A stretch of 64,000 nt of DNA from a virus. The stretch is from the IMG/VR virus record IMGVR_UViG_3300006310_000773. The stretch is one strand, 5' to 3'. Positions 11,611 to 30,588 of the stretch are shown here, one piece after another. The notes under the pieces were generated by a model. The model had not been told where the DNA came from. It did no database searches and saw nothing but the letters and a program-made list of their open reading frames with translations. Position 1 is the first letter of the stretch; each line of letters opens with the position of its first letter. A program made the position numbers and the translations under genes.

Positions 11611-11616
11611 AATTCC

Positions 11617-12983: not shown

Positions 12984-12985
12984 AA

Positions 12986-14169: not shown

Positions 14170-14198
14170 TAGTTTTTCCTTTAGAGAATATATTATTA

Positions 14199-14227
14199 AT
14201 TATACTCTCCAAAGGGGCAAATGTCAA
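14199..14227 (-). promoter_or_regulatory. Sigma70-type early promoter upstream of primase
   Basis: TTGACA-17 bp-TATAAT on the minus strand. Confidence 0.85.
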
Positions 14228-14234
14228 GTCTTTT

Positions 14235-14570
14235 CTATGCAGGGGATTTTTTTAAATCTGTGAATAATCTAAGAAGTTCAACGCCGCAATCCACTACACG
14301 TTCAACTTTTTCTTCAGCACCATCATCATCTAAATCAAATTTATCTTTAGCATATGCAACTAATTCAGATAGTTCATCATCATCCAAATCCATTATTTCT
14401 GGAATAACTTCATCAATTTCATTTAATGCTGGTTTTAATTTTTTTAATGGATCAAGAAAATATCTCGCATCTGACCAACTAAATTCATCATCATCTAAGG
14501 ATTTTTCCACCGCTTCTGATAATGAAAAAATGAAAGTCATTACCTCTTTGGTTTGTTCAATTCCTGCCAT
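14235..14570 (-). CDS. Acidic helical hypothetical protein
   Basis: ORF with AAGGA Shine-Dalgarno. Confidence 0.6.
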   Translation of the reverse strand: MAGIEQTKEVMTFIFSLSEAVEKSLDDDEFSWSDARYFLDPLKKLKPALNEIDEVIPEIMDLDDDELSELVAYAKDKFDLDDDGAEEKVERVVDCGVELLRLFTDLKKSPA

Positions 14571-14582
14571 AAATTCCTTTCT

Positions 14583-14894
14583 TTATTTAACTGCTTTTTC
14601 TACATCAATTGACCCAGTAGTAGGATCATATTTAATTTTAATATTTAATTCGATTGGCATTATCTTCCCATCCTTCATAGTAATGGGGAGCTTACCTTCT
14701 ACAGCACCTTTAAGTGCATCTTTTGCTGTCTTAAAAGCATGTGTGGGATCATCTTTAATTACTTTATCTAATTCTTTTTTTGCAGCATCTGGAATTATAG
14801 AATCAATCATTTTTTCAACATGTTCTGTTGCTAAATCTTGTGCTTTATCCATCACAAGTCCAGAAATTACATTAAATAGTAAGCCTGCTAACAT
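14583..14894 (-). CDS. Hypothetical protein
   Basis: ORF; start placed at ATG 14894 after AAGGA. Confidence 0.55.
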   Translation of the reverse strand: MLAGLLFNVISGLVMDKAQDLATEHVEKMIDSIIPDAAKKELDKVIKDDPTHAFKTAKDALKGAVEGKLPITMKDGKIMPIELNIKIKYDPTTGSIDVEKAVK

Positions 14895-15624
14895 CACGGT
14901 CCTTTCCATATCTTAAATATAACATCGCTCCGGTTCTTTCATCTTCAAGAACAATCGGATCTTTGTAATTTTTTAAACAATATTGTCTAATTTCTTCACC
15001 ATTATCAATTTCTCCTAATATCTTTCTGTATCTCGCATATTTCTTTTTTCCCAATCTCGCTCTCATAAATGTTGTAGTTGGGACTTTAAAGACTTTTGCT
15101 CCAGCAAATCTTCTTGACGGCCCAGGAGGATTAGTACCTAATCCCGCTTGTCCGGTTGTTACAACTGTCGGGCCATCTTCTGGAATTAATAATATTTGTA
15201 CTTCTTCTTCTTTTAAATATTGTGCCATTCCTTGCAATGAATCATAACATTCTTGAGAATTTATAAACTGTTTAAATTCTTCTTCAAAACTGTTTCTATG
15301 ATAATCAAAAGATGATGACTGTGGAAAACTTTCCTTAATAATTGTTTCTTCTTTCATAAGAAACAACGCAGCACCAATAGAAGCTATTTTACTTTTTCCA
15401 CCAGGAAGTTTTTGTAATAATTTTTTTAAATTGAATGCAATAGTATCCATTATCTTATAAGAATCACGTTCTTTAGAAGATAATTCTTTTCTCTTCCTCA
15501 AAACTTTACCGTTTTTATCGATGATTCCTAATTTGAAGGCTTCTGTTTTATTAAATGGTGTGGTCAATTTTTTTAAGAATTGATAAGCGAGATAATAATC
15601 TACTCCTGTAGTTATTGCAGACAT
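14872..15624 (-). CDS. Conserved T4-like phage hypothetical protein
   Basis: YQFLKKLTTPFNKTEAFKLGIIDKNGK pattern recognised from marine T4-like phages. Confidence 0.6.
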   Translation of the reverse strand: MSAITTGVDYYLAYQFLKKLTTPFNKTEAFKLGIIDKNGKVLRKRKELSSKERDSYKIMDTIAFNLKKLLQKLPGGKSKIASIGAALFLMKEETIIKESFPQSSSFDYHRNSFEEEFKQFINSQECYDSLQGMAQYLKEEEVQILLIPEDGPTVVTTGQAGLGTNPPGPSRRFAGAKVFKVPTTTFMRARLGKKKYARYRKILGEIDNGEEIRQYCLKNYKDPIVLEDERTGAMLYLRYGKDRDVSRLTI

Positions 15625-16016
15625 TATAGTTTCCTTAATTCTTGTATTACGTAATCATCCATAAAAATATCACTAGAGTATATATTCTTTCCTCTAATCC
15701 CCTCAATCCTATCTGGCATCATAGATAATGATACTAAAAATGGTTTTAATATTGGATAATATTCTTCATGAATTTTAAAAAATAATATCCTAGCAGCATC
15801 ACGTGCAGGAAAAACATTAGCAAAAACTATCAAATGATTTAAAATTAATCTAGATTTCAGTTCACCTGTTAATCTATAATGATTAAATAATCTTTTTATA
15901 TAAGTAGTTTTTTTCATATCCTCATGATATTCTGCTTCATCAATACATTGAGGATTATCATACACTTTCATTGCATATAAATTTATATTACCATCTGTTA
16001 TATCTGAAAATATCAT
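15624..16016 (-). CDS. Conserved T4-like phage hypothetical protein
   Basis: YDNPQC..YIKRLF..RLILNHLI pattern recognised from marine myoviruses. Confidence 0.65.
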   Translation of the reverse strand: MIFSDITDGNINLYAMKVYDNPQCIDEAEYHEDMKKTTYIKRLFNHYRLTGELKSRLILNHLIVFANVFPARDAARILFFKIHEEYYPILKPFLVSLSMMPDRIEGIRGKNIYSSDIFMDDYVIQELRKL

Positions 16017-16225
16017 TCTTCATTTGTTTGAGATTTTTCATCAAGAAGCATATTGATAACATTTAACGCACCGTTTGTCATGTGAATTTGATTCGTAAGA
16101 TTGGTATGCTCTTGGTTCAGAAGTTGAATTCTTTCCGCAAGAGCTTTATTATTTTGAATCAATTCTTCTCGTTTATTTTCAATCTCCTCAATAGAGACTG
16201 TTTTCGTGTCATTCTTTGTACCCAT
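16013..16225 (-). CDS. Small coiled-coil protein
   Basis: Heptad-rich ORF in tight gene array. Confidence 0.55.
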   Translation of the reverse strand: MGTKNDTKTVSIEEIENKREELIQNNKALAERIQLLNQEHTNLTNQIHMTNGALNVINMLLDEKSQTNEE

Positions 16226-16255
16226 AATATACCATAATCAAAAAAAGTTAAAAAA

Positions 16256-16549
16256 TTAATTATGACTGATGGTTGATCCTTGTGATACGACTTTCCAGTT
16301 TGTACCATCAAATACAGCCAAAGTCGCCGTACCGGCGTTCCCATCCGTCACCCATGCTACCTGTCCCGCAGTAGTATTTGTATATGCGGTAACATTTCCA
16401 GTATTGCTTGACGGAACTTTAAAAAAGTTCTGTATCGTGATCTTTTTATTACTTGGCGATGCTCCTGACGGATCATCGACAACCATAACTAGATCATCTT
16501 TAGTAGCCGCCGTCGCAGCAGTCAAGTCTGTTATTTTTTTATCAGCCAT
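16256..16549 (-). CDS. Putative virion fibre/decoration protein
   Basis: MADKKITDLTAAT N-terminus and AVFDGTNWK typical of phage fibre proteins. Confidence 0.55.
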   Translation of the reverse strand: MADKKITDLTAATAATKDDLVMVVDDPSGASPSNKKITIQNFFKVPSSNTGNVTAYTNTTAGQVAWVTDGNAGTATLAVFDGTNWKVVSQGSTISHN

Positions 16550-16567
16550 TATTTATTCTCCTATTTA

Positions 16568-16882
16568 TTAACTGTCAGCAAATGTTGCATCGTCTGCTGC
16601 ATCACCAGTAATTGAACCAGAAGCAACTAGAGTTTCATATTGAACTCTCGACCCCTTAGTAATTTTCTTTACCCAACCACCATGAGCAATTCCCATACCG
16701 GCAGCATTACCTACAGTTGTTTCTGTGGAATCTACACCAAAAATAGCGGCGGTATTTCCTGGTAATTGGTGTGCACCGTTATCATGATCGTGTACTACAA
16801 CAGAACTTGTAGTGTAATTTGTTGAATTAGCAATCCAGCGAGGCTTCGACCCCTCATTGTCGTCCATTGTCCATAAAGACAT
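16568..16882 (-). CDS. Putative virion structural protein
   Basis: MSLW..IFGVD..HGGWV..RVQYETLVA pattern of T4-like marine phage structural proteins. Confidence 0.55.
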   Translation of the reverse strand: MSLWTMDDNEGSKPRWIANSTNYTTSSVVVHDHDNGAHQLPGNTAAIFGVDSTETTVGNAAGMGIAHGGWVKKITKGSRVQYETLVASGSITGDAADDATFADS

Positions 16883-16901
16883 ATCTTTTCTCCTTTAATT
16901 A

Positions 16902-17105
16902 TTAAGAACCAAACTTATCTAAAAATCTTTGATAGGCTTGAGGCGATTTAAAACCAAGTTTTTGTGCTTTGCCGCCATCTGCACGAACTGTCTTTTTGAC
17001 TTCCTTTACAGCTTCTTTAACATGCTCTTTTACAGAATGTTCAGAGCTGCGTTCGTGTTTATCGTGTTCATGTTTATGATGATGTTTTTTACCATGTTCA
17101 GCCAT
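16902..17105 (-). CDS. His-rich small protein
   Basis: MAEHGKKHHHKHEHDKHERSSEH; GGAG SD. Confidence 0.55.
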   Translation of the reverse strand: MAEHGKKHHHKHEHDKHERSSEHSVKEHVKEAVKEVKKTVRADGGKAQKLGFKSPQAYQRFLDKFGS

Positions 17106-17119
17106 ATTAACTCCTTTAA

Positions 17120-18481
17120 TTATTCAGCTACTATTTTATAACCCATCTCCACATATTTAGGTATTTTATCCCTCATAACAAATACATATTCTTCTAATTC
17201 ATAATGTCCTACTGGTTTATCCATAAACATTAGAACATTAGCTCCCGGCCTAACCATTTTTTCTAATTGTTGTAATCTTTCATTTTCAAATTCTGACCAA
17301 TTATTTCCTTCCATCGCAGTAGGATCTTTTGCATCAACTTTATCTTTTAATGTTTTTATAACTTCTAATGGAGTAGATCTATGACCCACAAGATTTTCCA
17401 TTTCGTTTGCTTCTTCTACTGGTTCACCGTGTTTATTATGTTGAGCCCAAGCAAATGCATAAGCTTTGTCTGTTCCAACTTTCTTCTTTAGGGCTTTTAC
17501 TTGATGCTCTCTACCAGGAGGGGCTTCTTCATTTGAAAATTCTTCATATCCTGGATGACTAACCTTTTTAACCAATTTCTCTTTAGATTTAATTGCACGT
17601 TCTTTCCATTGTTTTTTAATTAATTCTCTGGTCGGTAAACCTTCTCTATAACTTCTTTCTTCTTTATAGCCCTGTTTTCTATTATGATCTTCAATATCAT
17701 TTGGATGTTGTATATTAATATTCTTTTCAACTTTTTTTTCTATATCTGGAAGATCATCTTTATTGGTGATTGTTTTAACATGCTTTTCAAACCGTTTCTT
17801 TCTTTTTGCTTTTAAATCTTCAATTAATTTTTTTCTATTGTGCGATTTTTGTTCGAGTTTAGGATTAACAGTCACTTTTTCCTTTTTCTTAGAAAGTTTC
17901 ATTTTTGGTTCTGGTTTTTCTTTTGGTGCTGGTGCTTCTTCCGGTTCAGGAGTTTGGTCTAGATCTCCATCATAATTTCCTTCTTCTTCACCTTCATAAT
18001 CCAATTCTTCTTCATCTTCTTCACCTCCCTCTTCATCTTCTTCTTCACCATTTTCGAATCCATGATGTTTCATTGAAGTTCGTAAATCATCGTGGTGTCC
18101 CGCCTTTTCATCATCTGGTAAAGTATCAAACATGGCTTTAGTAATATGATCTTTATCATGTTTAGGTGATTCTTCTTCACCTTCGCCGTCTCCTTCTTCT
18201 GCATCTAATCTGCTTTTTACTTCATCCTTTATTTCTGGACTCACTTTAGCGGTTTTTGCCCATTCATCAAATGTTTTACCTTTAGCAATAATCTTTAGTG
18301 CATCCATAACAGCGGCTTCATCTCCACCTGTCTTCTCTTTCTCAGGTGCCTCTTCAGTAACTTGTTGTTTCAACCAAGGAGGTCCACCGGTTATAGTCAA
18401 TGGTTGAACTTTAGCAGTTCCACTTACATTATTCCCACCAACTGTTAAAACTTGTACAATAGATTCATCTAAAGTTGACAT
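17120..18481 (-). CDS. Acidic/basic low-complexity protein, putative head internal protein
   Basis: Glu-rich tract; EEAPPGREHQVKALKK..AYAFAW module; many x-x-E sites. Confidence 0.5.
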   Translation of the reverse strand: MSTLDESIVQVLTVGGNNVSGTAKVQPLTITGGPPWLKQQVTEEAPEKEKTGGDEAAVMDALKIIAKGKTFDEWAKTAKVSPEIKDEVKSRLDAEEGDGEGEEESPKHDKDHITKAMFDTLPDDEKAGHHDDLRTSMKHHGFENGEEEDEEGGEEDEEELDYEGEEEGNYDGDLDQTPEPEEAPAPKEKPEPKMKLSKKKEKVTVNPKLEQKSHNRKKLIEDLKAKRKKRFEKHVKTITNKDDLPDIEKKVEKNINIQHPNDIEDHNRKQGYKEERSYREGLPTRELIKKQWKERAIKSKEKLVKKVSHPGYEEFSNEEAPPGREHQVKALKKKVGTDKAYAFAWAQHNKHGEPVEEANEMENLVGHRSTPLEVIKTLKDKVDAKDPTAMEGNNWSEFENERLQQLEKMVRPGANVLMFMDKPVGHYELEEYVFVMRDKIPKYVEMGYKIVAE

Positions 18482-18482
18482 A

Positions 18483-19874
18483 TTATTGTCCTATTCTAAT
18501 TGAATTATATTTTTGTGCTGATTTTAATGTTTTATTCGCATAATCTACTCTTGCTCCACCAACATTTACTTTTCTATCTGATATTAAAGCCTTATATTTT
18601 TTAGCATATTCTTTTTTTACTTTTGCTACTGGGCCTTCTTCTTGTGCTAATTCAACAGTTCCATATCCATCAACCTCTCCCGTAACATCTCTTTGCATTT
18701 TATACTTATATGTAGCATAAAGAAGTTTTTCTGCATCTTGTCCTGGAGTATCACCAGCATAAGATTTCACCATCTCAGGAGTTCCCCATTCCAACGGCCC
18801 ACGCGGATCTACATGTTGTCCAAATCTACCATTTTCTTGTGTGTCTGATGTATTCATTTTACCAGGATGTGGACCCCATGATAAAGATTCTAAAATTTGA
18901 TATAAAAATGGCCTGTTGAAAATATCCCCTTTTGTACAATTATAATCATGTTCTATATTTTCAAAAAGTTTATCTATTTTTTTCACAGAATTTTCTATAT
19001 TATCTTCTAATCCTTCTTTTCCGTGTTCAAACAATAACATATTACTAATTAATTTATCTGTTTCTTTCATCGCTTCAACAACATAAACATTATGCTTTGA
19101 TTGTGATAATATAATAGCTCTAAGTTCTTTGAAACATTCTTCAACTAAAGGCATATTTGAAAAATATTCTGTTTCATAATTTAAATAAACATATTCATTA
19201 TCCTTTTTTGGTCTATCAACAGTAAGTCTTTCAGGTCTAATTGGCCACTCTTTATCAAACATTGCCTCTCTTAAATTTAATCCCTTTCTAACATCCTTCA
19301 ACATTTTCATCGCGGATCTATCTGACATCGATTCCGGTAATCCTTTTTTAAATGATTCTATATCATTTTCTGATGCCGCTTTTCTCATTTTAGAAGCAGA
19401 CATTCCTGACACTCCTTCTGCATCTGGATCTCTTGTTCCTGCACTATGAACTTTAATGTAATCAAATTCATAATATCCATGTCTTGATTTTTTACCATTA
19501 TATTGTTCTAACAATTTTTTAAAATCTGCAACTCTATCACTTCCTACAACCATACATAAATTATCATACTGATCATTTAATTGTACTGCCGCCCCTAATG
19601 CATCTTTAATATTAATATCTCTGGAAAAAGTTTTAGCAAAATTAGGAAACATTTCCTTCATATATTTCATTTTTTGTTGATTAGTCAATGGATTCTTTTT
19701 AGAATCATGAGATTGACTTCCAAAAACATGTAATTCAGTATTATATCTTTTTGCTACATTACTTGCCCCTTCCAACAATCGACCATGCCCGGTTGTTGGT
19801 GGATTAAATCTACCAAAAACAAATACTCCTGTCTTACCTTTTGCTTCTTTTATGAGATTTTTATATGTTTTCAT
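18483..19874 (-). CDS. HIGH-superfamily (cytidylyltransferase/NMNAT-like) nucleotidyltransferase with C-terminal extension
   Basis: FGRFNPPTTGH, KNPL, VVGSDR, MSASKMR; N-terminus MKTYKNLIKE. Confidence 0.8.
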   Translation of the reverse strand: MKTYKNLIKEAKGKTGVFVFGRFNPPTTGHGRLLEGASNVAKRYNTELHVFGSQSHDSKKNPLTNQQKMKYMKEMFPNFAKTFSRDINIKDALGAAVQLNDQYDNLCMVVGSDRVADFKKLLEQYNGKKSRHGYYEFDYIKVHSAGTRDPDAEGVSGMSASKMRKAASENDIESFKKGLPESMSDRSAMKMLKDVRKGLNLREAMFDKEWPIRPERLTVDRPKKDNEYVYLNYETEYFSNMPLVEECFKELRAIILSQSKHNVYVVEAMKETDKLISNMLLFEHGKEGLEDNIENSVKKIDKLFENIEHDYNCTKGDIFNRPFLYQILESLSWGPHPGKMNTSDTQENGRFGQHVDPRGPLEWGTPEMVKSYAGDTPGQDAEKLLYATYKYKMQRDVTGEVDGYGTVELAQEEGPVAKVKKEYAKKYKALISDRKVNVGGARVDYANKTLKSAQKYNSIRIGQ

Positions 19875-20473
19875 TTTCCCTTAACCTTATCTCCAATTTT
19901 CTGATGCATACCAAAAGACAAATACCCACTATTGCCATCTTTTTTAAGTTGTTTTAAATGTTTTGATGCTACCCTTTTATTGCCAAGGAAAACAATTTCT
20001 CCTGAAGAATGTTGTGGAATTCTCTCAGGTTTTCCTTCTATTTTTACAACTCCATAATTTTGATTCTTGCCCATTCCCTCAAAGAATGATTTAAAATCTT
20101 TAAAAGTTCTCTCTTTGTCTGTTTCTACTTCTTCATGCCCCTTACCATATCCAGAACGTCCCCAACGACTGCCCTTTTGACTTTGTGGTTTCTTTCCATG
20201 CTTTTTCTTTTCTTTTTCATCTTCTCTTGTTCTATCTCTGTAAGTACTTGCTTCACCAAATTCTTTTTTAGCCATTCCTTTAACAAATTTTACGGATTGT
20301 CCTCTTCGTTTTTTTCTTATTTCGGGGCTCTTCATGCTATAATTTGCGCCAGTACTGTTGGGCTCTCTTCCTTGTACTTCTGCTTTTCTAGCAGCTCTAT
20401 AAAGCATGTCTTTAGACATTTCATCAATTTTATCGTCTTCTTTTTTCAAATATTCAGAGAATCTTTGACTCAT
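19871..20473 (-). CDS. Basic putative head internal protein
   Basis: MSQRFSEYLKKE; IDEMSKDMLYRAARKA module; internal RTFKDFKSFFE. Confidence 0.5.
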   Translation of the reverse strand: MSQRFSEYLKKEDDKIDEMSKDMLYRAARKAEVQGREPNSTGANYSMKSPEIRKKRRGQSVKFVKGMAKKEFGEASTYRDRTREDEKEKKKHGKKPQSQKGSRWGRSGYGKGHEEVETDKERTFKDFKSFFEGMGKNQNYGVVKIEGKPERIPQHSSGEIVFLGNKRVASKHLKQLKKDGNSGYLSFGMHQKIGDKVKGK

Positions 20474-20476
20474 ATT

Positions 20477-21454
20477 TTAATCCTGTCTTACAATTCCGGA
20501 AGCTTTACGATTTGCTCTTTGTGCCCTTCTCCAGGTATTTTCTTTATCCATCGCTTCTCTTTTCTTTTTTTCTTTGTCTTCAGGAGGAATACCCTGTCGA
20601 ACTTGGCCATACTTCTTTGCCATAGCGCGGTTTTTATCTAACGCTCTTTCATTCGCATCATCATCACCGGTGATCCCTTCTCCAACGGATTCTGCGTCTT
20701 CAGACTTCTGTGCTCGCCACTCTTTAAATGAAGTAAATCCGTAATCTACACTTTCCTTATAGTCAGGATTTTTTACAACTGTAGTGGTGGGGGAAGCTGT
20801 CTTCTTTTTTACTTTTGTTGAATGGCCTACATTATCTGGTATTTCTACACCTTCTTTTTTCGCATAAAACGCAGCACGATCTCTTTCTTGCTTATCTGGA
20901 GGTAGATGTCCTTTAGGTATATCCATTCCCTTTTTCTTAACGGGTACTTTTTTATGCACACTAGGGTTTGCTATTTTGTGTTGTGCAAAATGATCATCCC
21001 CCTTATACCACGCATCCCGTGCCCTTTCTTGATCATCCTCATTTACTTGTCCAGGAGTACCTTCATCAGAACTTCCTTGTTTATGTGGAGACGTTTCTGA
21101 ATTTCTTTTATCCGCCCGTCTTTTCGCAACTTGTTCAAAGGCTAATATAAACTCCTCCTTCTTTACTTCTTTTTTCTTATTCTTACTCTTTGATAATTGT
21201 CTTCTTAACAAATTAAAGAATTCAGGAGCTTCATCAACCATACCTAAAAATTGTTGAAGAACATTTATTAAAATTTGTCTTTCCACAACGGTTGTTATTG
21301 TCCCGCCTTTAATTTTTTTCAGTGCTGACTTAAAATAAGGTAAGTCCTTTTTGTCTTGAATTAATCCAGCCATAACCAGCTGTCTTAATTTTGTGGACAT
21401 ACCCTCTTCTTCGTCTATCATCACTTTATAAGACGTTTGTGTTAAACTATCCAT
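20477..21454 (-). CDS. Hypothetical protein, putative head internal protein
   Basis: Charged modular ORF; internal FTSFKEW. Confidence 0.5.
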   Translation of the reverse strand: MDSLTQTSYKVMIDEEEGMSTKLRQLVMAGLIQDKKDLPYFKSALKKIKGGTITTVVERQILINVLQQFLGMVDEAPEFFNLLRRQLSKSKNKKKEVKKEEFILAFEQVAKRRADKRNSETSPHKQGSSDEGTPGQVNEDDQERARDAWYKGDDHFAQHKIANPSVHKKVPVKKKGMDIPKGHLPPDKQERDRAAFYAKKEGVEIPDNVGHSTKVKKKTASPTTTVVKNPDYKESVDYGFTSFKEWRAQKSEDAESVGEGITGDDDANERALDKNRAMAKKYGQVRQGIPPEDKEKKKREAMDKENTWRRAQRANRKASGIVRQD

Positions 21455-21457
21455 TTA

Positions 21458-22690
21458 TTAGCTCCAATTCTTTAGTTCTACATTAAAATTATTTCTTGAA
21501 AATTCTAGCCGGTCAACCAATTTGACTGCTCCGCCTTTTATTTGATCTACCGCCACAAACCCCTCTGGAGCAGTTACTTTATAACCAGCACCATCTTTAA
21601 CAAAAGTTTGCGTTAATTGTTCCATATTTTCCAATTTAGATATTATCATCATTTTAGCATCAATTAACATATTCATTAAATCGAATATTTTTTCTAAATC
21701 AGCTTTCTTCTGTAGGAAGAACTTCAAAAACTCATTTTTCCGTTGTGTTTTTTTATCTTTAGCTGCATCAGTTTTTAATTTATTAATATCTTTATCGTAT
21801 TTATTTCCTATATATCTTATCAATTGTGTCACATGTGTTCTTGTATTTCTTATTTGTTGTCCTGTTTTTATCTTGCTATTATTAAAAGTTTTTATAATTG
21901 TATTAATTTCAGAATCATCAGCTATCGTGTTTAGCGTATTCGCTGATATGTTTTGAAAAGTTCTCCCTACAGAAGAAAGAATTTTAGTAATAGTCTCCGT
22001 GTCCCTTGCTGTGAAACTTGCTGTACCGGATGCATCAGTAAATTCTGCATCTCTAAACCAGATATCTTTATTCTTTAATAACCTGTTAATATTTATATTG
22101 AAAGACGATTTCATATCTTCTAATTTTGTACCTTTGTATTCCGTATGAAAAACAATGCCCATTTTTGAGTTTAATATCGTTTTTCCCAAATCAGAACCCA
22201 AAGGAACCGCATAAACTATAGTATTTGGATGAAAAGTGATATATCTCTCTCCTTCTATGGTTTTAATTAGCAAATCCTCTTTAGCAAACATCATATCTCC
22301 CTGTAATACTCCTTTAATTCCCAATTTTGGTAAATGTTCTAGAGCAACTTTTAACTTAGATCCAAGTCCAGGAGGATGATTATTATCAATATCTTGTGGT
22401 GTATAATTAATTTTGGGAGTTTTATTGAAAATACTTTTTGATCCAACAAAAAATTTACCATTATCAGGATTAATTCCACAAAAAACTGCAGGTGCACCAT
22501 CCCATTTAGTAGTAATGTAGGTATTTTTCATTGAAGAACCCGCTAACATATCTCTAAGCGATTGAATAAAATTGATTGAACCTCTGGTCCCATCCACTCC
22601 ACCATTTAAAACTTCATCTTCTATGTGTTCTAAATGTAGATTTTTACCGGTTTTCGCTTCACCAAGTAATATATTTATAAATGATTTCAT
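21458..22690 (-). CDS. DUF6267-like protein with ATP-dependent RNA-ligase-type motifs
   Basis: KNLHLEHIED; TTKWDG (motif I KxDG), LQGDMMF (III), PEGFV (IV), AVKLVDR (V). Confidence 0.7.
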   Translation of the reverse strand: MKSFINILLGEAKTGKNLHLEHIEDEVLNGGVDGTRGSINFIQSLRDMLAGSSMKNTYITTKWDGAPAVFCGINPDNGKFFVGSKSIFNKTPKINYTPQDIDNNHPPGLGSKLKVALEHLPKLGIKGVLQGDMMFAKEDLLIKTIEGERYITFHPNTIVYAVPLGSDLGKTILNSKMGIVFHTEYKGTKLEDMKSSFNININRLLKNKDIWFRDAEFTDASGTASFTARDTETITKILSSVGRTFQNISANTLNTIADDSEINTIIKTFNNSKIKTGQQIRNTRTHVTQLIRYIGNKYDKDINKLKTDAAKDKKTQRKNEFLKFFLQKKADLEKIFDLMNMLIDAKMMIISKLENMEQLTQTFVKDGAGYKVTAPEGFVAVDQIKGGAVKLVDRLEFSRNNFNVELKNWS

Positions 22691-22917
22691 GGTGTTAATG
22701 ATCCTGAAGATGGTTTATCTGGATTAACCCCCATATCTTTTAATTTGTCTCTAAGTTCTTTTACATCTTTTGCTGAAAAATCAAACTTGTTCCATGCATC
22801 ACCATAAAATCCTTTTAATCCTTTTCTATAAATTTGTACTTCACCTTCACGGCCATCAAATGACGCTATCATACCTCTTGGCATACCCTCTATTAAATGA
22901 TTTTTAAATGTTTTCAT
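22687..22917 (-). CDS. Small putative internal protein (76 aa)
   Basis: Restarted at ATG 22917 (TGATG overlap): MKTFKNHLIEG. Confidence 0.6.
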   Translation of the reverse strand: MKTFKNHLIEGMPRGMIASFDGREGEVQIYRKGLKGFYGDAWNKFDFSAKDVKELRDKLKDMGVNPDKPSSGSLTP

Positions 22918-23843
22918 CAAATTTTCCTTCCAATTTCTTTTGCAACAACTTCTCTTGTATAAATTTCTAACTCTGAAGAATATTCCCATCTCTTTCGTGG
23001 TATCTTGTATTTTGCAACAAATGCATCTATATTTTCTTGCTGTTCTTCATTTTCAATATTTCCATCTTCTTCTTCATTATCTACTTTAATTGGTATATAA
23101 TGAATTTTTTTAATCTTAATATTATTGACTATTTGTTCATCCCATGAACTATCTGTTTGTCTTTTTGATTTTGCATAACCATAAAATATACTACTCATTA
23201 CCTCTGAATTCTTTTTAATAATTTTCTCTACACCATCAAAATAATCTTTTATTACCAATCTTAATGCTTTACCATCTCCAGACATGTGTTTTTTCATGTC
23301 ATTCCAAAGTTCAAATTCAAATTCTCTTCGTACTCTATCTTTTCCCAGTATTGGACTAAGATGTTTTAATACAAGTTCTCTTATTAAATCATTAAGTTCA
23401 CGTTCTACTACTGCAAATTTGGGTCCTGTTCCACCCCTTTGTGCATTAGCAAACCAAGACATTTCAACCCATCTTCTACCTGCTGTATCTACAGTACTCA
23501 TTATATCATCTCTGGCAGATACAATAACATCCGCATCCAGTTCTGCAACAACGCCGCCCCCTGCAGCTATACCACCTTCCAAATAACGAGACATCATTGT
23601 GAAAAATGCTGAGATAGACCTCTTTCCCCCCTCAAGTTTTTTTAATTCATATAAGTTTTCTGCCCTCAGCACATGAAAAACTGTTGTACGTATCGTATCT
23701 GGCCATATCCTTTTAAACATGGGCCCTGAAATAGGAATCTTTAAAGCACTAGAGGCTCTCCCTTGACTTGCAACATCAAACACAAGATTTGACGCACTTG
23801 TTTGCGCAAATTCTGTTAAAAGTAGATCAAGATAGGATTTCAA
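22917..23843 (-). CDS. Hypothetical protein, tandem paralogue B (possible ADP-ribosyltransferase fold)
   Basis: TVFHV..SISAFF..GGGVVAELDA..GRRWVE..WDEQIVNNIKIKKIH shared with next gene. Confidence 0.5.
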   Translation of the reverse strand: MKSYLDLLLTEFAQTSASNLVFDVASQGRASSALKIPISGPMFKRIWPDTIRTTVFHVLRAENLYELKKLEGGKRSISAFFTMMSRYLEGGIAAGGGVVAELDADVIVSARDDIMSTVDTAGRRWVEMSWFANAQRGGTGPKFAVVERELNDLIRELVLKHLSPILGKDRVRREFEFELWNDMKKHMSGDGKALRLVIKDYFDGVEKIIKKNSEVMSSIFYGYAKSKRQTDSSWDEQIVNNIKIKKIHYIPIKVDNEEEDGNIENEEQQENIDAFVAKYKIPRKRWEYSSELEIYTREVVAKEIGRKI

Positions 23844-24778
23844 CCTTTACTTCTCCTCAAAGCTTGTACTTCTGTTTGTGCAATTTTAGTAACATAATTT
23901 GATAAGTCTCTAGCTCCATTCACCCAATGTGTATGAGGAATTTTACCTAATCTTGGAATTACTGAATCTTTTACCCAATCCAATTCAAACTGTCTAGAAT
24001 TAAAAGTATGAACCTTTATAATTTTAATTTTATCGACTACTTGTTCATCGTATACATTCCATTCTGATAATTCTGAATCTCCTCCTACCATACGACCAGA
24101 AGAAGGATGCTTAACTGCTACTGTTCCCCTTCTGACATAATATCCATGAACTGCTCCTTGAATATCTTTTTTATGCTTCTTGAGAATTGCATTTACACCA
24201 TCAATATAATCTGCAATTATCAAAGACATCACCTTTTTGTTATCTTTAAAATTTTCTCGTAAATGCCACCAAGCTCCCAATCCTATATCTGGTTCTATTT
24301 TTATGAGTTCTTTAGTTTTTGGATCATGTTTTATTGCAATATCTATTAACATCTGTTCAAGTTCTTTATGCATAGTCTTTTTTTTGTCTATGTTCATCAA
24401 TTCAACCCACCGTCTGCCGGTTTTATCTGGCATGCTCATCAGATCACCTTTACTTGACATAATAATATTTGCATCTAATTCTACAACAAGTCCGCCCCCA
24501 CCTTGTATACCATGTTCCATAGTATCAGCATCCATATTAAAAAAAGCAGAAATTGATTTTTTCCTATTCTGTAATTTCTTCAACTTCTCAAAACCAATAC
24601 CACTTGTAACATGAAACACCGTTGCTCTTGGTAATTGTACTTGAAAAATCCATTCCATTGTGCTAGATGTTAATGGAATTTGCATATACTGAATTTTTTG
24701 AAATTCAAATATTTTTTCAGAAGCGCTTCTTTGCCAAGCTGGCGGGTCTTCTTTTAGATATGTTTTAAATGTTTTCAT
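23840..24778 (-). CDS. Hypothetical protein, tandem paralogue A (possible ADP-ribosyltransferase fold)
   Basis: MKTFKTYLKE; TVFHVT..SISAFF..GGGLVVELDA..GRRWVE..YDEQVVDKIKIIKVH. Confidence 0.5.
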   Translation of the reverse strand: MKTFKTYLKEDPPAWQRSASEKIFEFQKIQYMQIPLTSSTMEWIFQVQLPRATVFHVTSGIGFEKLKKLQNRKKSISAFFNMDADTMEHGIQGGGGLVVELDANIIMSSKGDLMSMPDKTGRRWVELMNIDKKKTMHKELEQMLIDIAIKHDPKTKELIKIEPDIGLGAWWHLRENFKDNKKVMSLIIADYIDGVNAILKKHKKDIQGAVHGYYVRRGTVAVKHPSSGRMVGGDSELSEWNVYDEQVVDKIKIIKVHTFNSRQFELDWVKDSVIPRLGKIPHTHWVNGARDLSNYVTKIAQTEVQALRRSKG

Positions 24779-24985
24779 TTAAATTTCTCCACGAGCCGCA
24801 ATGTCCACCTTATCTTGACTCTTTGCCCACTTCTGAGCCTGGGATTTGTTTTTAAATTCATTAGAAACTGGCATCCATTTATTGTTCCCCACATGACCCA
24901 TTACATACCATTTTTTGTCGTTAGGGTTCTTGGAAACAATATACTTGGAATTTGCTTCTTCTAGATACTGTGAAAATGTTATCAT
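24779..24985 (-). CDS. Small putative internal protein
   Basis: MITFSQYLEEA N-terminus. Confidence 0.6.
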   Translation of the reverse strand: MITFSQYLEEANSKYIVSKNPNDKKWYVMGHVGNNKWMPVSNEFKNKSQAQKWAKSQDKVDIAARGEI

Positions 24986-25251
24986 CTTTTATAAAGTTTT
25001 TTAAAATCTACTCTTGTACCAGCTTCTTTTTCAAGTTTCTCTGGTGTTACCTTTTTTAACTTGGCACGTTCAAAATAACTATTTTTTCCATGTGTAGCCA
25101 CGAGCTTTATAAACATATTTTCTCCTTTCACACCAACTCTACCTGTATGCCAAGAGCTACCATCATATGCTACATATTTCTCAGTATTATCCTTAGATGT
25201 GTCCAAATAATATTCTACTTTTTCTTTTAGATGTTGTTTAAATGTTCGCAA
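24982..25251 (-). CDS. Small putative internal protein
   Basis: Restarted at TTG 25251 after GGAG SD: MRTFKQHLKE. Confidence 0.55.
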   Translation of the reverse strand: MRTFKQHLKEKVEYYLDTSKDNTEKYVAYDGSSWHTGRVGVKGENMFIKLVATHGKNSYFERAKLKKVTPEKLEKEAGTRVDFKKLYKR

Positions 25252-26869
25252 CTGAATCTCCTGAATTACCTGTTTTATTTGCAAGTGATACATGAAAAAT
25301 TCTCTTAGGATCTGGATTTGCTTGTATTAAATCAGTAACATAATCCTTGAGTTGTTTTTGCTGTTTTACTTTCGTATACCACGATACTCTTCCACCAAAC
25401 TTCACTTTCTTTGGTTTTTCAAACTCTAATTTAAAATTTGGGTCTGGTAAAGAATTATGAAATAATCTCTTTCTCAATTTTTTCCATTCAGGCCCAGATG
25501 CAAGAGTTATATGTAAATCTTTTATTGGTTTCATATCTGAATTTTTCGTCACAACACTATCTCTCATTTTTGATAATGCTCCCATATCTTTTGAAGATAA
25601 CATATACTTCAAAACACTTTCAACCTTGACCTCTTCTCTAATGTTATATTTGTTTTTGATTGCTCTCAATAATTCTAATTTATTATTTTTACCAGTTTTA
25701 ACTGCAAATTCAAGAGCGTGGTTGAGAGCATCTCCTACTTGTATCCCTTTCAGTCCTATTCCCATTAAATCTCTTCCTCCAATTGAAAGATCTTTAATTG
25801 ATGTCACCGTCATTCTTCTAAGTCTACTAGAAAGAGTAGGTCTATTCTTTACCTTTAAATATTCATCTATATTTGCGATACCTTTATTATCAACATTTTT
25901 TATAAATTGGACAAGTTTAAAATCATTTTTTTCTAAAAATGGAGAGTTATCTGTATATGTGACTACACTTTGAACTGCTTCAGCATCATTATTTGATAAT
26001 CTCATTTTACTTATAACCTCTTTTCCTGCATTTGAACCATATCCATTCATTAACATTCCCATAAATGCGGGAAATGCTTTTTTATCAAGTTTATCAATTG
26101 ATGCAAGATCAATTTTTCTTAAATTTGATTGTGGTAAAATATGATCAATTAATCCTGTATCAAATAATAATTTAATTCCAATACTAGGTTTCTCTGCTTT
26201 AGTAAACATCTTACGAAACTCTTCTTGAAATCTCTCTGCTGAAACTGTTGATATGGACTTTGCATTTTTCTTTATTTCTTCAAATGTTTTTGATTCAATC
26301 TTAAATTCAAATCTTGCCGCAAACTGTACCGCACGCAACATTCTCAATGGATCTTCTTCAAATGCAACTGGACTAATCATACGGATTTCCTTTTTCTTCA
26401 AATCCGTCATACCTTTTCGACCTATATCAATTACTTTTCCTGTGTCTAAATCTTTTGCAAGAGCATTAATCCAAAAATCTCTTCTTAATTGATCTTGTTG
26501 AAGTGTAATTCCCTTTCCTAATTTGACTTCAAAATCCTTATGTCCTTTTCCCGTACTCTTTGAATCTATTCTAGGAATTGAAATATCAATCTCTCCAGAA
26601 CCACCTTCTGGAGTATACTTAATAATACCAAAAGATTTTCCAACTAGATTTACCTTTCCAAATGGTTGCAAGATTTTACCCAAAGTCTCTAATTCTATTC
26701 CAACCACTAAAAGATCTAAATCTTTTGATACTTTTCCTAAAATTTCATCTCTTACCGCACCACCAATTTGATATATCTTACCGCCACCTCGTTTGACCGC
26801 ATTTCTTACATCAGTAGAAAGTGTTGCCGCAAGATCATTTTCATGTATTATTTGTTTGAAGGATTTCAT
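25238..26869 (-). CDS. cca: Class II tRNA nucleotidyltransferase (CCA-adding-like) fused to C-terminal 2H phosphoesterase
   Basis: GGAVRD..DLDL, RRDFWINALA, EDPLRMLR, SAERFQEEF; C-terminal LHITLA and FHVSLA (2H motifs). Confidence 0.85.
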   Translation of the reverse strand: MKSFKQIIHENDLAATLSTDVRNAVKRGGGKIYQIGGAVRDEILGKVSKDLDLLVVGIELETLGKILQPFGKVNLVGKSFGIIKYTPEGGSGEIDISIPRIDSKSTGKGHKDFEVKLGKGITLQQDQLRRDFWINALAKDLDTGKVIDIGRKGMTDLKKKEIRMISPVAFEEDPLRMLRAVQFAARFEFKIESKTFEEIKKNAKSISTVSAERFQEEFRKMFTKAEKPSIGIKLLFDTGLIDHILPQSNLRKIDLASIDKLDKKAFPAFMGMLMNGYGSNAGKEVISKMRLSNNDAEAVQSVVTYTDNSPFLEKNDFKLVQFIKNVDNKGIANIDEYLKVKNRPTLSSRLRRMTVTSIKDLSIGGRDLMGIGLKGIQVGDALNHALEFAVKTGKNNKLELLRAIKNKYNIREEVKVESVLKYMLSSKDMGALSKMRDSVVTKNSDMKPIKDLHITLASGPEWKKLRKRLFHNSLPDPNFKLEFEKPKKVKFGGRVSWYTKVKQQKQLKDYVTDLIQANPDPKRIFHVSLANKTGNSGDSVANI

Positions 26870-28856
26870 GAATACCGTGTGCTATAGATTTATATTTAAC
26901 CTGTTCATCTTGTTTTTTATTTCCATAAATTGCGTCATTAGCATTCTTTAGATGTTCAGCAAAACCTTTGTGTAATACCATTTCAAATTTAAATTGTCCA
27001 CCATATCCATTCCCATCTTCTCTAATTCCAATACCTGCAACAGGAATAACTTCTTTTGAACCTTCAACATTATATCCAATATAAGGGTTTCCTTTTTCAT
27101 CTTTCAATGGTTCAAAACGTTCACTTATTTTACTATAATCATCTGTACCAAATATATGTTTCATTGTATGTGGATCTAAAGAAAGATCCCCAATTGCCAT
27201 AACTTCTTCTCTTTCAGAAACGCCCTTCAATGGAAAATTACCTTTGATATCAGTCATCATTCCTTCTGTTAATTTAGGATTTTCTAGTATAGCCGTTATT
27301 GCCGCATCTTGATAATCTTGGCTAACTTGTCTATGTTCTTTAAGAAATTGTTTAGCTTCTCCATCACCAGCCTTCGCTACTTGATTTAATGCTGTCAACA
27401 ATACTTTTGATTTATCTCTAGTTAAATCCCACTTTCCGCCCTCTTTCTTGTTTGTTATCAGTTCTTTTAAATCACTAACTTTTTTTGACTTCATTAAGTC
27501 TGATAAAGGTGGTTCATTGGGATTAATTTTATCAAAATGTTTAGTTACCGCCTCTACTAATCTATTTCTTTGATTTTCCCCAAATAAAGATGCTTTAATG
27601 GGGTCTGGTAACTGGTCATCCCAAGCTTCAAATTTTCCTGTACCAGAATTTAAAAAGTTTACAAGTGTAGATTTTTTTAATGAAACTTCATGAAGAAAAC
27701 TGCCGCCCTTTCCTTTAACTCTGAAAAAAACATCTGTTGAATACCCTTTATTTTCATCATAACCTTCACCCCACATAGCCTCAACATCTTCTTTTGTATC
27801 CCAACAACCAAACTCTATTTCAGAACCTTCTCCATGTTCTTTTTTCAAATAATTAAATATTGCTTTTCTATTTCCGTGTGCCGCATCAACCCAAGAATCA
27901 TCAATTACTTTTTTCCTTTTTATCTTCCCCTTCTTATCTTTTTTATAATCAGGGTATGTGTCTTCTAAATCTTTATTATATTTTTTTAAAACATCTCTAA
28001 ATTGATCAGCATCTTTATCATCCATTGTTGTCATAGCCATTGTCATCAATTCTCCCGCTTGAGCAAAGATTTTACCAGCACCGCCCTTAACATCTGAATA
28101 ATTCTGATATTTTCCTGACGCCGCACCAGAGGCTTCACAATTTGCCATTCTTTCAATAAGATCAAAAACTCTAGGAGACACTTTTTTTCCACGCAAATTA
28201 TCTGGAATTTTAAATCTATCTGGTGGAGGGCCCTGAGTGGCAAATTTAACATTACCTAAAAATTCTTCTAAGTCTTTTCCTTTACCAATTGGTTCATTCA
28301 CTCTATCACTATTTTGTGCATCTTCAATACTTACTGTTTCAGTTTGTCTATGTTTATTTTTTTGATCGGATGTTTTTTCTTTTACTGTTGGTTTTTTCTC
28401 TGATTTTGTAACTACAGATTTTGCATTTTGAGTGTCAGATTTTACTCTTTTCTTTTTTGATTCAGAGGGATGTCGAAAATCGTGTGGGACTTCATCTTTA
28501 CTATAACCATGTTTCTCAGCTTTATCATCTTTCTGTTGGGTTTTTCTATCTAATTTTTGAATTTCTTCACCACCTGTCGGATGAGTTCCATTAACCCAAG
28601 CTGTAGCATGGATTGCATCATTAAAATATTCTCTTTTATTTTCACCATTTTTAACACCAACCCAAGAACCACTATTACTTTTATATATTACACCTCTTCT
28701 TAATTGTTTAAATCCTTGATGTTTCTTATCTTTTTGCTGCTTTGTGTGATGGGCATGTTGATCTACATGATATGCGTGTGGGTCTTTTGATTTGGAGTCT
28801 TTATCTATATAAGGGCCTGACTCTTCCCTTATAAATTGATTAAATGATTGTGGCAT
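26841..28856 (-). CDS. Large hypothetical protein, possible PD-(D/E)xK nuclease domain
   Basis: MPQSFNQFIREE; AGE..YSTDVFF..HEVSLKKS. Confidence 0.45.
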   Translation of the reverse strand: MPQSFNQFIREESGPYIDKDSKSKDPHAYHVDQHAHHTKQQKDKKHQGFKQLRRGVIYKSNSGSWVGVKNGENKREYFNDAIHATAWVNGTHPTGGEEIQKLDRKTQQKDDKAEKHGYSKDEVPHDFRHPSESKKKRVKSDTQNAKSVVTKSEKKPTVKEKTSDQKNKHRQTETVSIEDAQNSDRVNEPIGKGKDLEEFLGNVKFATQGPPPDRFKIPDNLRGKKVSPRVFDLIERMANCEASGAASGKYQNYSDVKGGAGKIFAQAGELMTMAMTTMDDKDADQFRDVLKKYNKDLEDTYPDYKKDKKGKIKRKKVIDDSWVDAAHGNRKAIFNYLKKEHGEGSEIEFGCWDTKEDVEAMWGEGYDENKGYSTDVFFRVKGKGGSFLHEVSLKKSTLVNFLNSGTGKFEAWDDQLPDPIKASLFGENQRNRLVEAVTKHFDKINPNEPPLSDLMKSKKVSDLKELITNKKEGGKWDLTRDKSKVLLTALNQVAKAGDGEAKQFLKEHRQVSQDYQDAAITAILENPKLTEGMMTDIKGNFPLKGVSEREEVMAIGDLSLDPHTMKHIFGTDDYSKISERFEPLKDEKGNPYIGYNVEGSKEVIPVAGIGIREDGNGYGGQFKFEMVLHKGFAEHLKNANDAIYGNKKQDEQVKYKSIAHGIHEILQTNNT

Positions 28857-28890
28857 AACTCAATATCCTGCTATAATTAAAGATTATAAC

Positions 28891-28898
28891 TATTTATG
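28891..28898 (-). promoter_or_regulatory. Possible T4-type late promoter (CATAAATA)
   Basis: Near-consensus motif ~35 bp upstream of 26841..28856. Confidence 0.45.
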
Positions 28899-28920
28899 TT
28901 TATAAAAATTGTCTCTTGAG

Positions 28921-30588
28921 TTATCTTGAAAGGAGTTTGAAGGCATTTTCTAATCCGCCGATGAGATAATTTTTCCCTAATTTTACATCTGCGATTTTTC
29001 CAGCTGGTTCTCCCCGAATGCTTTTCATATTTTTTAAATAATCCTTCATTGCCTTCATATTGGGATTTGCTGCTTTGGGGATTTTTACTATTCCACTTTT
29101 TTCCATATATTCTAAATGTTCACCACCCCTTAATGTAATGAGCCATTCTTTTCCTCCTGCACCAGGACCATGATCCCAACTTATAATATCAACAAGTGGT
29201 ACTCGTAATTTTTTAGCCATCGCTCCAATATCTGCTTTAGTAAGACCATTACCTTCTGTTAATATTTGTTTTGCGATATTTTCAATTGGGCCGTCATAAT
29301 CTTCAACATACTTGTTTAATTCATATTTACCACTATCCATTCCATAAATCTGCATGTGTAATCTTTTTTTAACAGATTTACCATCCTTTGTTAAATTGAC
29401 TTTTTTGATAGCGGTTTTGCCGGGTGATGGTTTTCTTTGCCCAAATGTAACTTCTCTGTCCCATGAATCTTGATCTACATCAAAACCATGAGCTTTTTTG
29501 GTGTGATCTTTTGCATGTTGAACTGCTGCGGAAAAAGTTGGATGATATATGTCATATGGTTTTCGTGCTTCTTCAATTCCTGCTTGGGCTTTATTGGATT
29601 TTTCAACCTCTTTCATAGAATCTTTTTTTGAAACATTACTTTTATTTTTCTCAAATTGTTTATAATTTTTATTTTCTCTCATTGGATTGTCAGAAATCTT
29701 AATCGTTGGATGATTCACTTTAGCTTTAGAAAGGGTACTCTTAACACCACTTTCTATTCCCTTTTCAACATGTAATGTATCATCTTTCCATTTAAATTTT
29801 CCTGAATGATTCTTTAAATGTTTATTAATTTTTTCTTTGTATGCTCTATTAGGAGTTACAAATTCTTCTAACACTTTTCCATCTTTGTAATGGGCGGCAT
29901 GTTTATGGTCACCTCCCCCTTTACGAATCTTATTTAATTTTCCATCATCCTGATATCTACTTGTACTATAATGTTGACCAGTTTTTGTATTTTTAATAGT
30001 ATACTGCGGTCTTTTTAAACTTTTTAGTAACTCTATGCTTTCCTCTACCTTTCCGCTTGCTTGTTTTTTCCGTTGTTCTTTATAGCGGTTATCTCGTTCT
30101 TGATGTATTTTTTCATACTTGTTTTCCATCTCTTTATCGAGACGTTTCGATTTCGCCCATTCAGATTCTTTTTTTGAAATTTTGTTTACTGCTTCTCTTT
30201 CACTTCGTTGCCTTCGATCATCAACTTCACCAAGTTCCAATTCTTCTTTAGGACCATATCCCTTAGGCGTTACATCTGTTATTTCTACACCTCGTAGTCT
30301 CGCACCCTTTCTCATACGTGCTGCAACTTCTGGTTTTGGATTACCTTTTTTGTCAAAGAACTTTGCGAGATGAGGTGGTAATTTTGATGCTTCATCAAAA
30401 TTGAAATCTTCTTTCATCAATTTCATACCCATTCTTTTTCGTATGACATTTATCTGCTTGATGATCTCTTTTTGTTTTGGTGAACCAGGCATAGATTTCA
30501 ACCCCTTCACCATCAATGCATACATATCTGCTGTATCTGATGATCCTTCTACAAGTTCTGTTTCCTGATAAGATTTAAACGTTTTCAT
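28921..30588 (-). CDS. Modular putative head internal (poly)protein
   Basis: MKTFKSYQETELVE; short modules separated by hydrophobic-x-E sites. Confidence 0.5.
   Translation of the reverse strand: MKTFKSYQETELVEGSSDTADMYALMVKGLKSMPGSPKQKEIIKQINVIRKRMGMKLMKEDFNFDEASKLPPHLAKFFDKKGNPKPEVAARMRKGARLRGVEITDVTPKGYGPKEELELGEVDDRRQRSEREAVNKISKKESEWAKSKRLDKEMENKYEKIHQERDNRYKEQRKKQASGKVEESIELLKSLKRPQYTIKNTKTGQHYSTSRYQDDGKLNKIRKGGGDHKHAAHYKDGKVLEEFVTPNRAYKEKINKHLKNHSGKFKWKDDTLHVEKGIESGVKSTLSKAKVNHPTIKISDNPMRENKNYKQFEKNKSNVSKKDSMKEVEKSNKAQAGIEEARKPYDIYHPTFSAAVQHAKDHTKKAHGFDVDQDSWDREVTFGQRKPSPGKTAIKKVNLTKDGKSVKKRLHMQIYGMDSGKYELNKYVEDYDGPIENIAKQILTEGNGLTKADIGAMAKKLRVPLVDIISWDHGPGAGGKEWLITLRGGEHLEYMEKSGIVKIPKAANPNMKAMKDYLKNMKSIRGEPAGKIADVKLGKNYLIGGLENAFKLLSR

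Follow-up and report, generated by a model that had tools for sequence, protein, structure and literature searches.

Why would a phage gene join an enzyme that completes tRNA 3' ends to a small domain with paired histidine motifs, and what would the two parts do together? The question is raised by a gene found in a 64,000-nucleotide stretch of the IMG/VR virus record IMGVR_UViG_3300006310_000773 (this whole stretch is called the window below), whose source is an uncultured marine T4-like myophage. The gene, here named CCA-2H, encodes an N-terminal CCA-adding enzyme followed by a C-terminal 2H phosphoesterase domain, and we are highly confident of both identities. An earlier note on this DNA had described the product as a CCA-adding enzyme with a 2H phosphoesterase in place of an HD domain. 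We propose, as a reading for which we see even chances, that CCA-2H is a capsid-loaded, protease-processed tRNA 3'-end repair pair of this phage. The coordinates of the features are collected in Table 1.

Judged by motifs and alignments, residues ~19-405 are a complete class II CCA-type nucleotidyltransferase, for which C,C,A specificity is predicted. The Pfam models PolyA_pol (1.1e-18) and PolyA_pol_RNAbd (4.4e-16) were matched above the cut-off; tRNA_NucTran2_2 reached only 8e-4, below the cut-off, yet it is recorded for many homologues. The protein also matched PHROG 2244 (tRNA nucleotidyltransferase, 2e-59), and its best solved relative is the CCA-adding enzyme 6ibp from Planococcus (3.5e-22). 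All the class II motifs quoted by the earlier note (GGAVRD/DLD, RRD, EDPLR, and ERxxxE) are present, the last of them as motif E, ERFQEEF, at residues 212-218. Residues 34-405 align with residues 35-406 of human TRNT1, the body and tail domains included. The flexible-loop region between motifs A and B aligns almost gap-free to 6ibp, a true CCA-adding enzyme, and the deletion that marks CC-adding enzymes is not apparent.

The lack of an HD motif, on which the earlier note had remarked, was borne out: no Pfam HD family was matched at E<=1, and the protein has no 'HD' dipeptide. There are only seven histidines in the whole protein, and between residues 230 and 405 only H243 and H384. The idea that the 2H domain stands in place of an HD domain nevertheless had the anatomy wrong, since the TRNT1 with which residues 34-405 align end to end is itself HD-less. 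As the enzyme part is complete and its architecture is the HD-less one, the 2H domain is an addition and not a replacement. The HD-less class II enzymes of Planococcus (6ibp), Geobacillus (1miv), and Human (TRNT1, 4x4w) align along residues 19-405 and share all the catalytic motifs, and CCA-2H differs from them in having ~10 extra N-terminal residues (as counted against the Geobacillus CCA enzyme), which make up the tag described below, and a 130-aa C-terminal 2H domain.

A comparison with the E. coli-type Cca and its annotated jumbo-phage homologues is also informative. As in CCA-2H, one chain combines a class II CCA-type polymerase with a phosphoesterase that could clear blocked tRNA 3' ends; Yakunin et al. 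reportedly found in 2004 that the HD domain of E. coli Cca has 2',3'-cyclic phosphodiesterase, 2'-nucleotidase, and phosphatase activities. In CCA-2H, by contrast, the phosphoesterase is of an unrelated fold (2H, metal-independent) and is placed after the complete enzyme instead of inside its body, the HD motif is missing, and the chain has a capsid-tag-like N-terminus and a candidate protease site between its two parts.

By itself the C-terminal domain fitted none of the curated families, and its relatives were therefore gathered by an exhaustive search with residues 405-543, which gave 56 matches, and by a word-indexed search with the whole protein, and 50 diverse sequences of the domain were aligned (alignment A1). 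The C-terminal domain of ~125 aa with paired LHITLA and FHVSLA motifs had been placed correctly by the earlier note. Both histidines (H453 and H526) are invariant in the 50 sequences, as are R523, T533, and G534. The T455 of the first motif is kept in at least 90% of them, and the Ser/Thr of the second motif falls outside the near-invariant columns. The signature of the family around the second motif reads R-x-[FY]-H-[VI]-[ST]-[LI]-A-N-x-T-G-x-x-x-D-S. Among the 50 members, 13 matched Pfam LigT_PEase (best 5.8e-6), 12 matched 2_5_RNA_ligase2, and 8 matched 'Swiss Army Knife 2H' (2H-SAK); Pfam Acb1 (PF23474) was matched by two members, with a best E of 0.011, and HVSL by one. In hhalign, the family matched E. 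coli ThpR (E 0.0011 over 62 columns), with LHITLA aligned to the catalytic H43 motif. The same comparison with T4 Acb1 (E 0.012 over 38 columns, probability 3.6%) was too weak to use, and the family profile found nothing significant among the PDB sequences, where the 2H protein PH0099 came only at E 1.1. Weak matches to Pfam TRI4_N (PF23135) were seen in 12 members of A1, at best 5e-5, around R-x-F-H-V-S-L-A-N.

The structure check suggested by the earlier note was run, and the C-terminus takes the 2H fold. The AlphaFold2 (AF2) model of the domain, built on the 50-sequence alignment, has a predicted local distance difference test (pLDDT) score of 88.4 and a predicted template modelling (pTM) score of 0.81, and its elements follow the order beta-alpha-beta(HxT)-alpha-beta-beta-alpha-beta(HxS). 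A single-sequence AlphaFold model of the whole protein was discarded (pLDDT 39). The top Foldseek matches of the domain model in the PDB are almost only 2H enzymes (ns2 of mouse hepatitis virus (MHV), Usb1, LigT, drCPDase, and Acb1), with a probability of ~1 and E ~6e-3. When the model was compared by VIA-align with 48,161 representative chains, ranks 1-21 were all 2H enzymes (Z 7.9-4.3, root-mean-square deviation 3.3-4.5 over 97-118 residues) and the next chain had a Z of 2.6. In this comparison the FBB1 Acb1 (7t27), aligned over its whole chain with Z 7.4, is tied with LigT, ns2, and drCPDase. The best viral model in BFVD is a 2H-SAK protein (E 5e-5, TM 0.63), and the ESM Atlas returned clusters of the family itself followed by LigT-type cyclic phosphodiesterases (TM 0.64) and by clusters containing Usb1 and Acb1.

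On this model, the C-terminal domain is a 2H phosphoesterase of an unnamed viral subfamily. The juxtaposition of its two catalytic histidines is assumed from the fold, and we predict that the domain is very probably catalytically active. It has the fold and the paired HxT/S motifs of LigT/ThpR and of Pfam 2H-SAK, to which the family shows its best Pfam and profile affinities, although it is ~50 residues shorter than LigT/ThpR, stops ~15 residues past the second motif, and shows a signature of its own. At ~130 aa, the family would rank among the smallest of the superfamily and could be useful for defining its minimal catalytic core.

The association of the two enzymes is recurrent but not obligatory. 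The whole-protein search returned 48 full-length fused homologues from marine metagenomes, at 51-74% identity, together with ~65 homologues of 404-413 aa that lack the 2H domain. In a FastTree tree of the CCA part the fused and unfused forms appear interleaved, the fused forms occurring in several clades, and unfused forms of 411 aa nest among the closest fused relatives of the CCA-2H protein. One close relative (L006, 2-1146) has a split form: its CCA gene, ending in ...KKKFGVA, overlaps by 4 bases a separate 2H gene whose product (P0123) consists of a tag, a 55-residue module, and a 2H domain 67% identical to that of the window. In P0172, a distant CCA enzyme, the fusion partner comes from another branch of the 2H family. 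On a T4-like contig (L003/L004) the CCA gene is tagged and unfused, with no such 2H gene within 8 kb. Just upstream of it (L003 7074-9215, and L004), with one small tagged gene between, lies a tagged HD_4/HD gene resembling small alarmone hydrolases (MKSFKSHMLNE), and L003 has seven tagged genes in a row.

The N-terminal decapeptide of CCA-2H resembles the capsid-targeting sequence (CTS) of the T4 internal proteins (IP), of which IPII and IPIII begin with MKTYQEFIAE and IPI with MKTFKEF. In T4 the first ten residues of IPIII suffice for head loading; positions 4 and 7 of the CTS serve targeting and positions 8 and 10 processing, and gp21 cuts after L/I-x-E (PMC9026906). The F4, I7, I8, and E10 of the tag correspond to Y4, F7, I8, and E10 of the T4 CTS. 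Almost every complete phage homologue, fused or unfused, begins with M-[KIR]-x-F-x-x-[FYH]-[LIV]-x-E, and the stand-alone proteins of the 2H family are also tagged. A loose form of the pattern, searched in all frames of the window, was found at 18 of 2,770 ATG codons. Of these, nine open successive genes between 19874 and 30588, and another opens the 140-aa gene beside the protease gene. Upstream DNA and codon use differ among the tagged genes, so the tag is conserved at the peptide level. The cultured phage Melnitz (L008, MZ577097) has at 7932-17430 a syntenic tagged cluster behind its gp41-like helicase gene (MQGFKTFLSE, MKKFSEIIE, and MKNFKNHIAE), which contains no CCA-2H gene.

The likeness to T4 IPI-III and Alt (PMC9026906, PMC3012670) thus includes a decapeptide with an aromatic residue at position 4, a hydrophobic one at 7, Ile/Leu at 8, and Glu at 10, a diverse cluster of accessory genes that share only the peptide, and the presence of a gp21 homologue. 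The difference is in the cargo, which here would be a pair of RNA-end enzymes and not small basic proteins or an ADP-ribosyltransferase; in addition, packaging in the marine group is a prediction. Taken together, these features of the peptide suggest that the CCA-2H protein is probably packaged into heads. About 10-11 genes of the window are tagged (18483-30588 and 62813-63235, minus strand), with peptides such as MKTYKNLIKE, MKTFKTYLKE, MITFSQYLEE, and MPQSFNQFIRE. The open reading frame at 24982-25293 (minus strand) probably has a wrong listed ATG start; a TTG at 25251 gives the tag MRTFKQHLKE, and this reading (24982-25251) shares 14 bases with the end of the CCA-2H gene.

A second peptide of interest is the linker NIREE, which is directly followed by VKVES (residues 414-418). 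There are only three [LIVM]-x-E tripeptides in the whole protein, at residues 8-10 (the end of the tag), 334-336, and 410-412. The site at 334-336 is kept in 19% of the homologues, and the I-R-E at 410-412 in every one of the 21 fused homologues that are less than 90% identical. The linker of P0172 has the sequence LRVYIRGLLTESEVKFAGILKL, and the stand-alone 2H protein P0146 begins with MKLLREYIRGLLVEQEVKFSGILKL; the match indicates that the linker is the former tag of a stand-alone 2H gene with its L-x-E site retained. The earlier note had suggested that IREE/KVE may be a gp21 site releasing the 2H domain. The first half of this suggestion is supported, as I-R-E fits L/I-x-E, is kept in all 21 of these homologues, and has its counterpart in the former tag of P0172, and the second half is not, as KVE misfits L/I-x-E and its Glu is an Asp in several homologues. 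Cleavage at the linker is a tentative prediction, to which we give somewhat less than an even chance.

These elements can be assembled into a mechanism. The tag would load the CCA-2H protein into the prohead core, and the prohead protease would remove it after E10 and would probably separate the two enzymes after E412. Both enzymes would be ejected into the host along with the DNA. The 2H enzyme would then open the 2',3'-cyclic phosphate (or related blocked) tRNA 3' end left by the attack of a host ribonuclease or toxin, and the CCA enzyme would rebuild the tRNA 3' terminus, which would make translation available from the first minutes of infection. An additional phosphatase step may be required. 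That RNA 3' ends are the 2H substrate is a possibility that we place just short of the balance point. Host defence toxins do attack the 3' CCA of tRNA, and some HD-type small alarmone hydrolases reverse the block (10.1101/2021.04.30.441581, PMC9712102); moreover, the CCA and 2H enzymes of large phages are both discussed under RNA repair (PMC7824862).

Several lines of evidence lead us to favour tRNA 3'-end repair: the linkage between CCA and 2H recurs, the HD_4-CCA neighbourhood of L003 runs parallel to it, the HD domain of E. coli Cca gives a precedent, the sequence affinity of the 2H family is closer to LigT and 2H-SAK than to Acb1, and antiphage toxins of the host block tRNA CCA ends in a way that some HD-type hydrolases reverse. 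A more speculative extension, which we doubt more than we believe, is that CCA and 2H, loaded as one tagged precursor, cut apart, and injected, would pre-emptively undo host attacks on tRNA 3' ends (by ribonuclease toxins or by blocking of the toxic small alarmone synthetase (toxSAS) type) or would restart translation in starved oligotrophic hosts, as components of an undescribed 'injected tRNA repair kit' that would be widespread among marine T4-like phages. The sole tRNA gene in the window, a tRNA-Ala (TGC) at 52248-52323 (minus strand), encodes its own 3' CCA, so the phage CCA enzyme is not needed to complete that tRNA.

A number of observations weigh against this repair proposal. The CCA-2H protein alone matched no 2H Pfam model at E<=10, the gene is absent from the isolated relatives Melnitz, Mosig, and HTVC008M, and in the literature we found no virion proteome, activity, or cleavage data for CCA-2H or any relative. 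LigT-type 2H enzymes leave a 2'-phosphate, and there is no phosphatase in the CCA-2H protein to remove it. The 2H domain is carried on the tail of the CCA enzyme, a tail that in class II structures grips the elbow of the tRNA, a long way from its 3' end, so the fusion may serve co-delivery and not substrate channelling. Stand-alone genes of the 2H family, also tagged, lie on small contigs with no CCA gene nearby (L009-L011), and the family is also joined to other unrelated modules, which weakens guilt by association. Finally, the [LI]xE tripeptide is not significantly depleted in the CCA-2H protein (3 observed against 5.3 expected, p=0.2), a scan for late promoters (TATAAATA) gave no enrichment, and scans for sigma-70 promoters and terminators were equally uninformative, so the scans carry no information on the timing of expression.

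The undepleted [LI]xE sites and the unenriched late-promoter signal, together with the position of the gene behind replication genes (gp41-like helicase and UvsX-like) and outside the head module, would also suit an ordinary cytoplasmic enzyme of tRNA maturation or repair that is neither packaged nor cleaved, the shared peptide being, for example, a different kind of signal for translation, stability, or assembly. CCA enzymes without known packaging are common in large phages. The tagged neighbours likewise show no general avoidance of [LI]xE, and, apart from the position and conservation of the sites, nothing statistical points to protease exposure. Against this, the tag fits the experimentally mapped positions of the T4 CTS and always ends in hydrophobic-x-Glu, the 140-aa protein encoded beside the protease gene (from 63235) is also tagged, and the ip genes of T4 likewise lie outside its head module. 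The former tag in the P0172 linker, with its LxE site, and the building of the same 2H family into a tape-measure-like protein (see below) argue in the same direction, and we consider the cytoplasmic explanation rather unlikely.

If the 2H enzyme is delivered with the virion, its target could still be something other than tRNA. It could act like Acb1, as a nuclease against cyclic oligonucleotide or 2'-5' immune signals, those of the cyclic oligonucleotide-based antiphage signalling system (CBASS), Pycsar, or type III CRISPR, and have been joined to CCA only since tagged cargo genes fuse readily and are then cut apart by the protease. The earlier note had offered tRNA 3'-end repair and an anti-CBASS nuclease as its two alternatives, and the sequence and fold data are compatible with either. 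Signal destruction fits the size and fold of the domain equally well, which counts against the repair proposal too: in size and coverage the domain resembles small viral 2H enzymes such as FBB1 Acb1 and MHV ns2 (Z 7.5), the nearest Atlas clusters include one of Acb1 (0.89, 176 shared features), and 2 of the 50 members of A1 match Pfam Acb1. The family joins unrelated modules promiscuously and occurs without CCA, and for packaged polyvalent-protein 2H domains not linked to RNA ligases, roles in signal degradation or as RNases have been proposed (Iyer et al. 2017, PMC5512222). Acb1 itself (T4 gp57B; FBB1 7t26/7t27) is a small viral 2H enzyme of similar size, with an N-terminus that reads MMEFKDFSTG in T4. 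However, the two members that match the Pfam Acb1 model are outnumbered by those matching LigT_PEase and 2H-SAK, ThpR was aligned by hhalign at a lower E and over more columns than T4 Acb1, and the linkage with CCA recurs in fused, adjacent, and independently fused forms. Few defence systems are reported for the streamlined marine bacteria that serve as hosts to relatives of the window phage (PMC7029224), a point that concerns the relatives. On balance we regard signal destruction as an unlikely function, more so than the cytoplasmic one. More improbable by far is that the domain would be a USB1-like 3' exoribonuclease or RNA-binding module, trimming or holding damaged tRNA 3' ends, and not a cyclic phosphodiesterase. 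The structural matches do include human and yeast Usb1 (VIA-align Z 5.0-6.7, Foldseek rank 2), one family member matches HVSL, and the proposals of Iyer et al. for phage 2H domains include an RNase role, but the Usb1 matches are no better than those of LigT, Acb1, or ns2, trimming of the Usb1 type yields cyclic phosphate ends that would block CCA addition, and the invariant catalytic histidines speak against a purely binding role.

Returning to the proposed packaged repair pair, the domain content of P0170 points to another type of carrier that would bring the 2H domain in with the virion. This metagenomic tape-measure-like protein of 2537 aa, with PhageMin_Tail at residues 117-306, embeds a domain of this family at 764-888. 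It can be compared with the polyvalent proteins of Iyer, Burroughs, Anand, de Souza, and Aravind (2017, PMC5512222), in which phage 2H domains are predicted to be virion-delivered. For those domains no association with RNA ligases was reported, and a word search of the text for CCA returned nothing (PMC5512222); in the window, a T4-type tag would serve for delivery, and the 2H domain is partnered mainly with a CCA enzyme. A dedicated look for longer proteins with this 2H domain found none, which is weak evidence. Two matches of 2050-2074 aa from the representative search (P0138 and P0149) were rejected as spurious, being Tudor-like repeat proteins that the hidden Markov model of the family does not find.

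Each of the three elements, the phage CCA enzyme, the phage 2H enzyme, and the T4 internal protein, is known by itself; their combination is, as far as we found, undescribed. The literature gave no description of a CCA-2H fusion, of a tagged or packaged CCA enzyme, or of a T4 tag in marine T4-like phages (cyanophages and pelagiphages), a coverage that left Burroughs & Aravind 2016 outside. Were the two enzymes packaged and injected, RNA-repair enzymes would join restriction inhibitors and an ADP-ribosyltransferase among the cargo of T4-type heads, and in some of the ocean's most abundant phage-host systems the contest over tRNA 3' ends would begin in the first seconds of infection.

The window has a base composition of ~30% G+C. 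Its major capsid protein shares 62-66% identity with its counterparts in Methylophilales phage Melnitz and in the Pelagibacter phages Mosig and HTVC008M. Near-identical CCA-2H proteins (98-99%) are present in independent assemblies (P0002 and G001), the closest of the records searched being an IMG/VR fragment (98%), and a phage GenBank collection gave neither a DNA nor a protein match to the CCA-2H gene or its 2H domain. Among the tagged neighbours, the DUF6267 protein was not recognised as a ligase by PDB sequence search or by Atlas features.

Table 1: Features of the window, with positions counted from its first letter (Strand: - for the minus strand).
Feature	Position	Strand	Details and evidence
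CCA-2H gene (whole)	25238-26869	-	543 aa, no internal stops; stop codon 25238-25240
N-terminal decapeptide MKSFKQIIHE, T4 CTS-like tag ending I-H-E	26840-26869	-	Likeness to T4 internal proteins; kept in homologues
Class II CCA-adding enzyme, head to tail (residues 19-405)	25655-26815	-	Pfam, PHROG, and PDB matches; motifs
Motif A	26708-26764	-	GGAVRD at residues 36-41, DLDLL at 50-54
Motif B RRD	26474-26485	-	RRDF at residues 129-132
Motif D EDPLR (nucleotide template)	26342-26356	-	Residues 172-176
Linker NIREE (residues 409-413) with I410-R-E412, candidate prohead-protease site	25631-25645	-	Conserved at domain border
Minimal 2H phosphoesterase domain (residues 414-543)	25241-25630	-	Alignment A1, AF2 model, fold searches, Pfam matches of family members
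First motif H453-I-T455 (LHITLA)	25505-25513	-	
Second motif H526-V-S528 (FHVSLA)	25286-25294	-	
Run of co-oriented tagged genes, containing CCA-2H	18483-30588	-	Shared N-terminal peptide
Tagged cytidylyltransferase-like protein	18483-19874	-	
Tagged DUF6267 protein	21458-22690	-	
gp23-type major capsid protein	59449-60786		Gp23 3.5e-139
T4-type scaffold	60824-62077		T4_CASP 1.9e-69
gp21-type prohead protease, presumed processing enzyme	62153-62800	-	Peptidase_S77 1.8e-35, phrog_207 2.5e-77
Tagged 140-aa protein beside prohead protease gene	62813-63235	-	

Some homologues carry other modules at the same places. P0077 (545 aa), whose CCA part is 53% identical, has after the same GIKEE linker a different C-terminal domain (~412-545) with HVTIA and HVTISH, which may be another type of 2H domain; Pfam gave nothing usable for it and hhalign was too weak. 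A short HNH-like module, rich in Lys/Arg, follows the CCA enzyme in P0063 (491 aa) and the 2H domain in P0130 (332 aa). Tagged proteins seem to swap modules at junctions of the form hydrophobic-x-Glu-Glu. A contig with a fused CCA-2H (L005, with 228-905 and 2833-3519 of note) encodes a tagged P-loop kinase of the Zeta_toxin/AAA_33 type (MRQFQQFLLE) that could be a polynucleotide kinase, and the same contig also carries genes with PycTM, SET, Lipase_3, and Endonuclease_NS domains.

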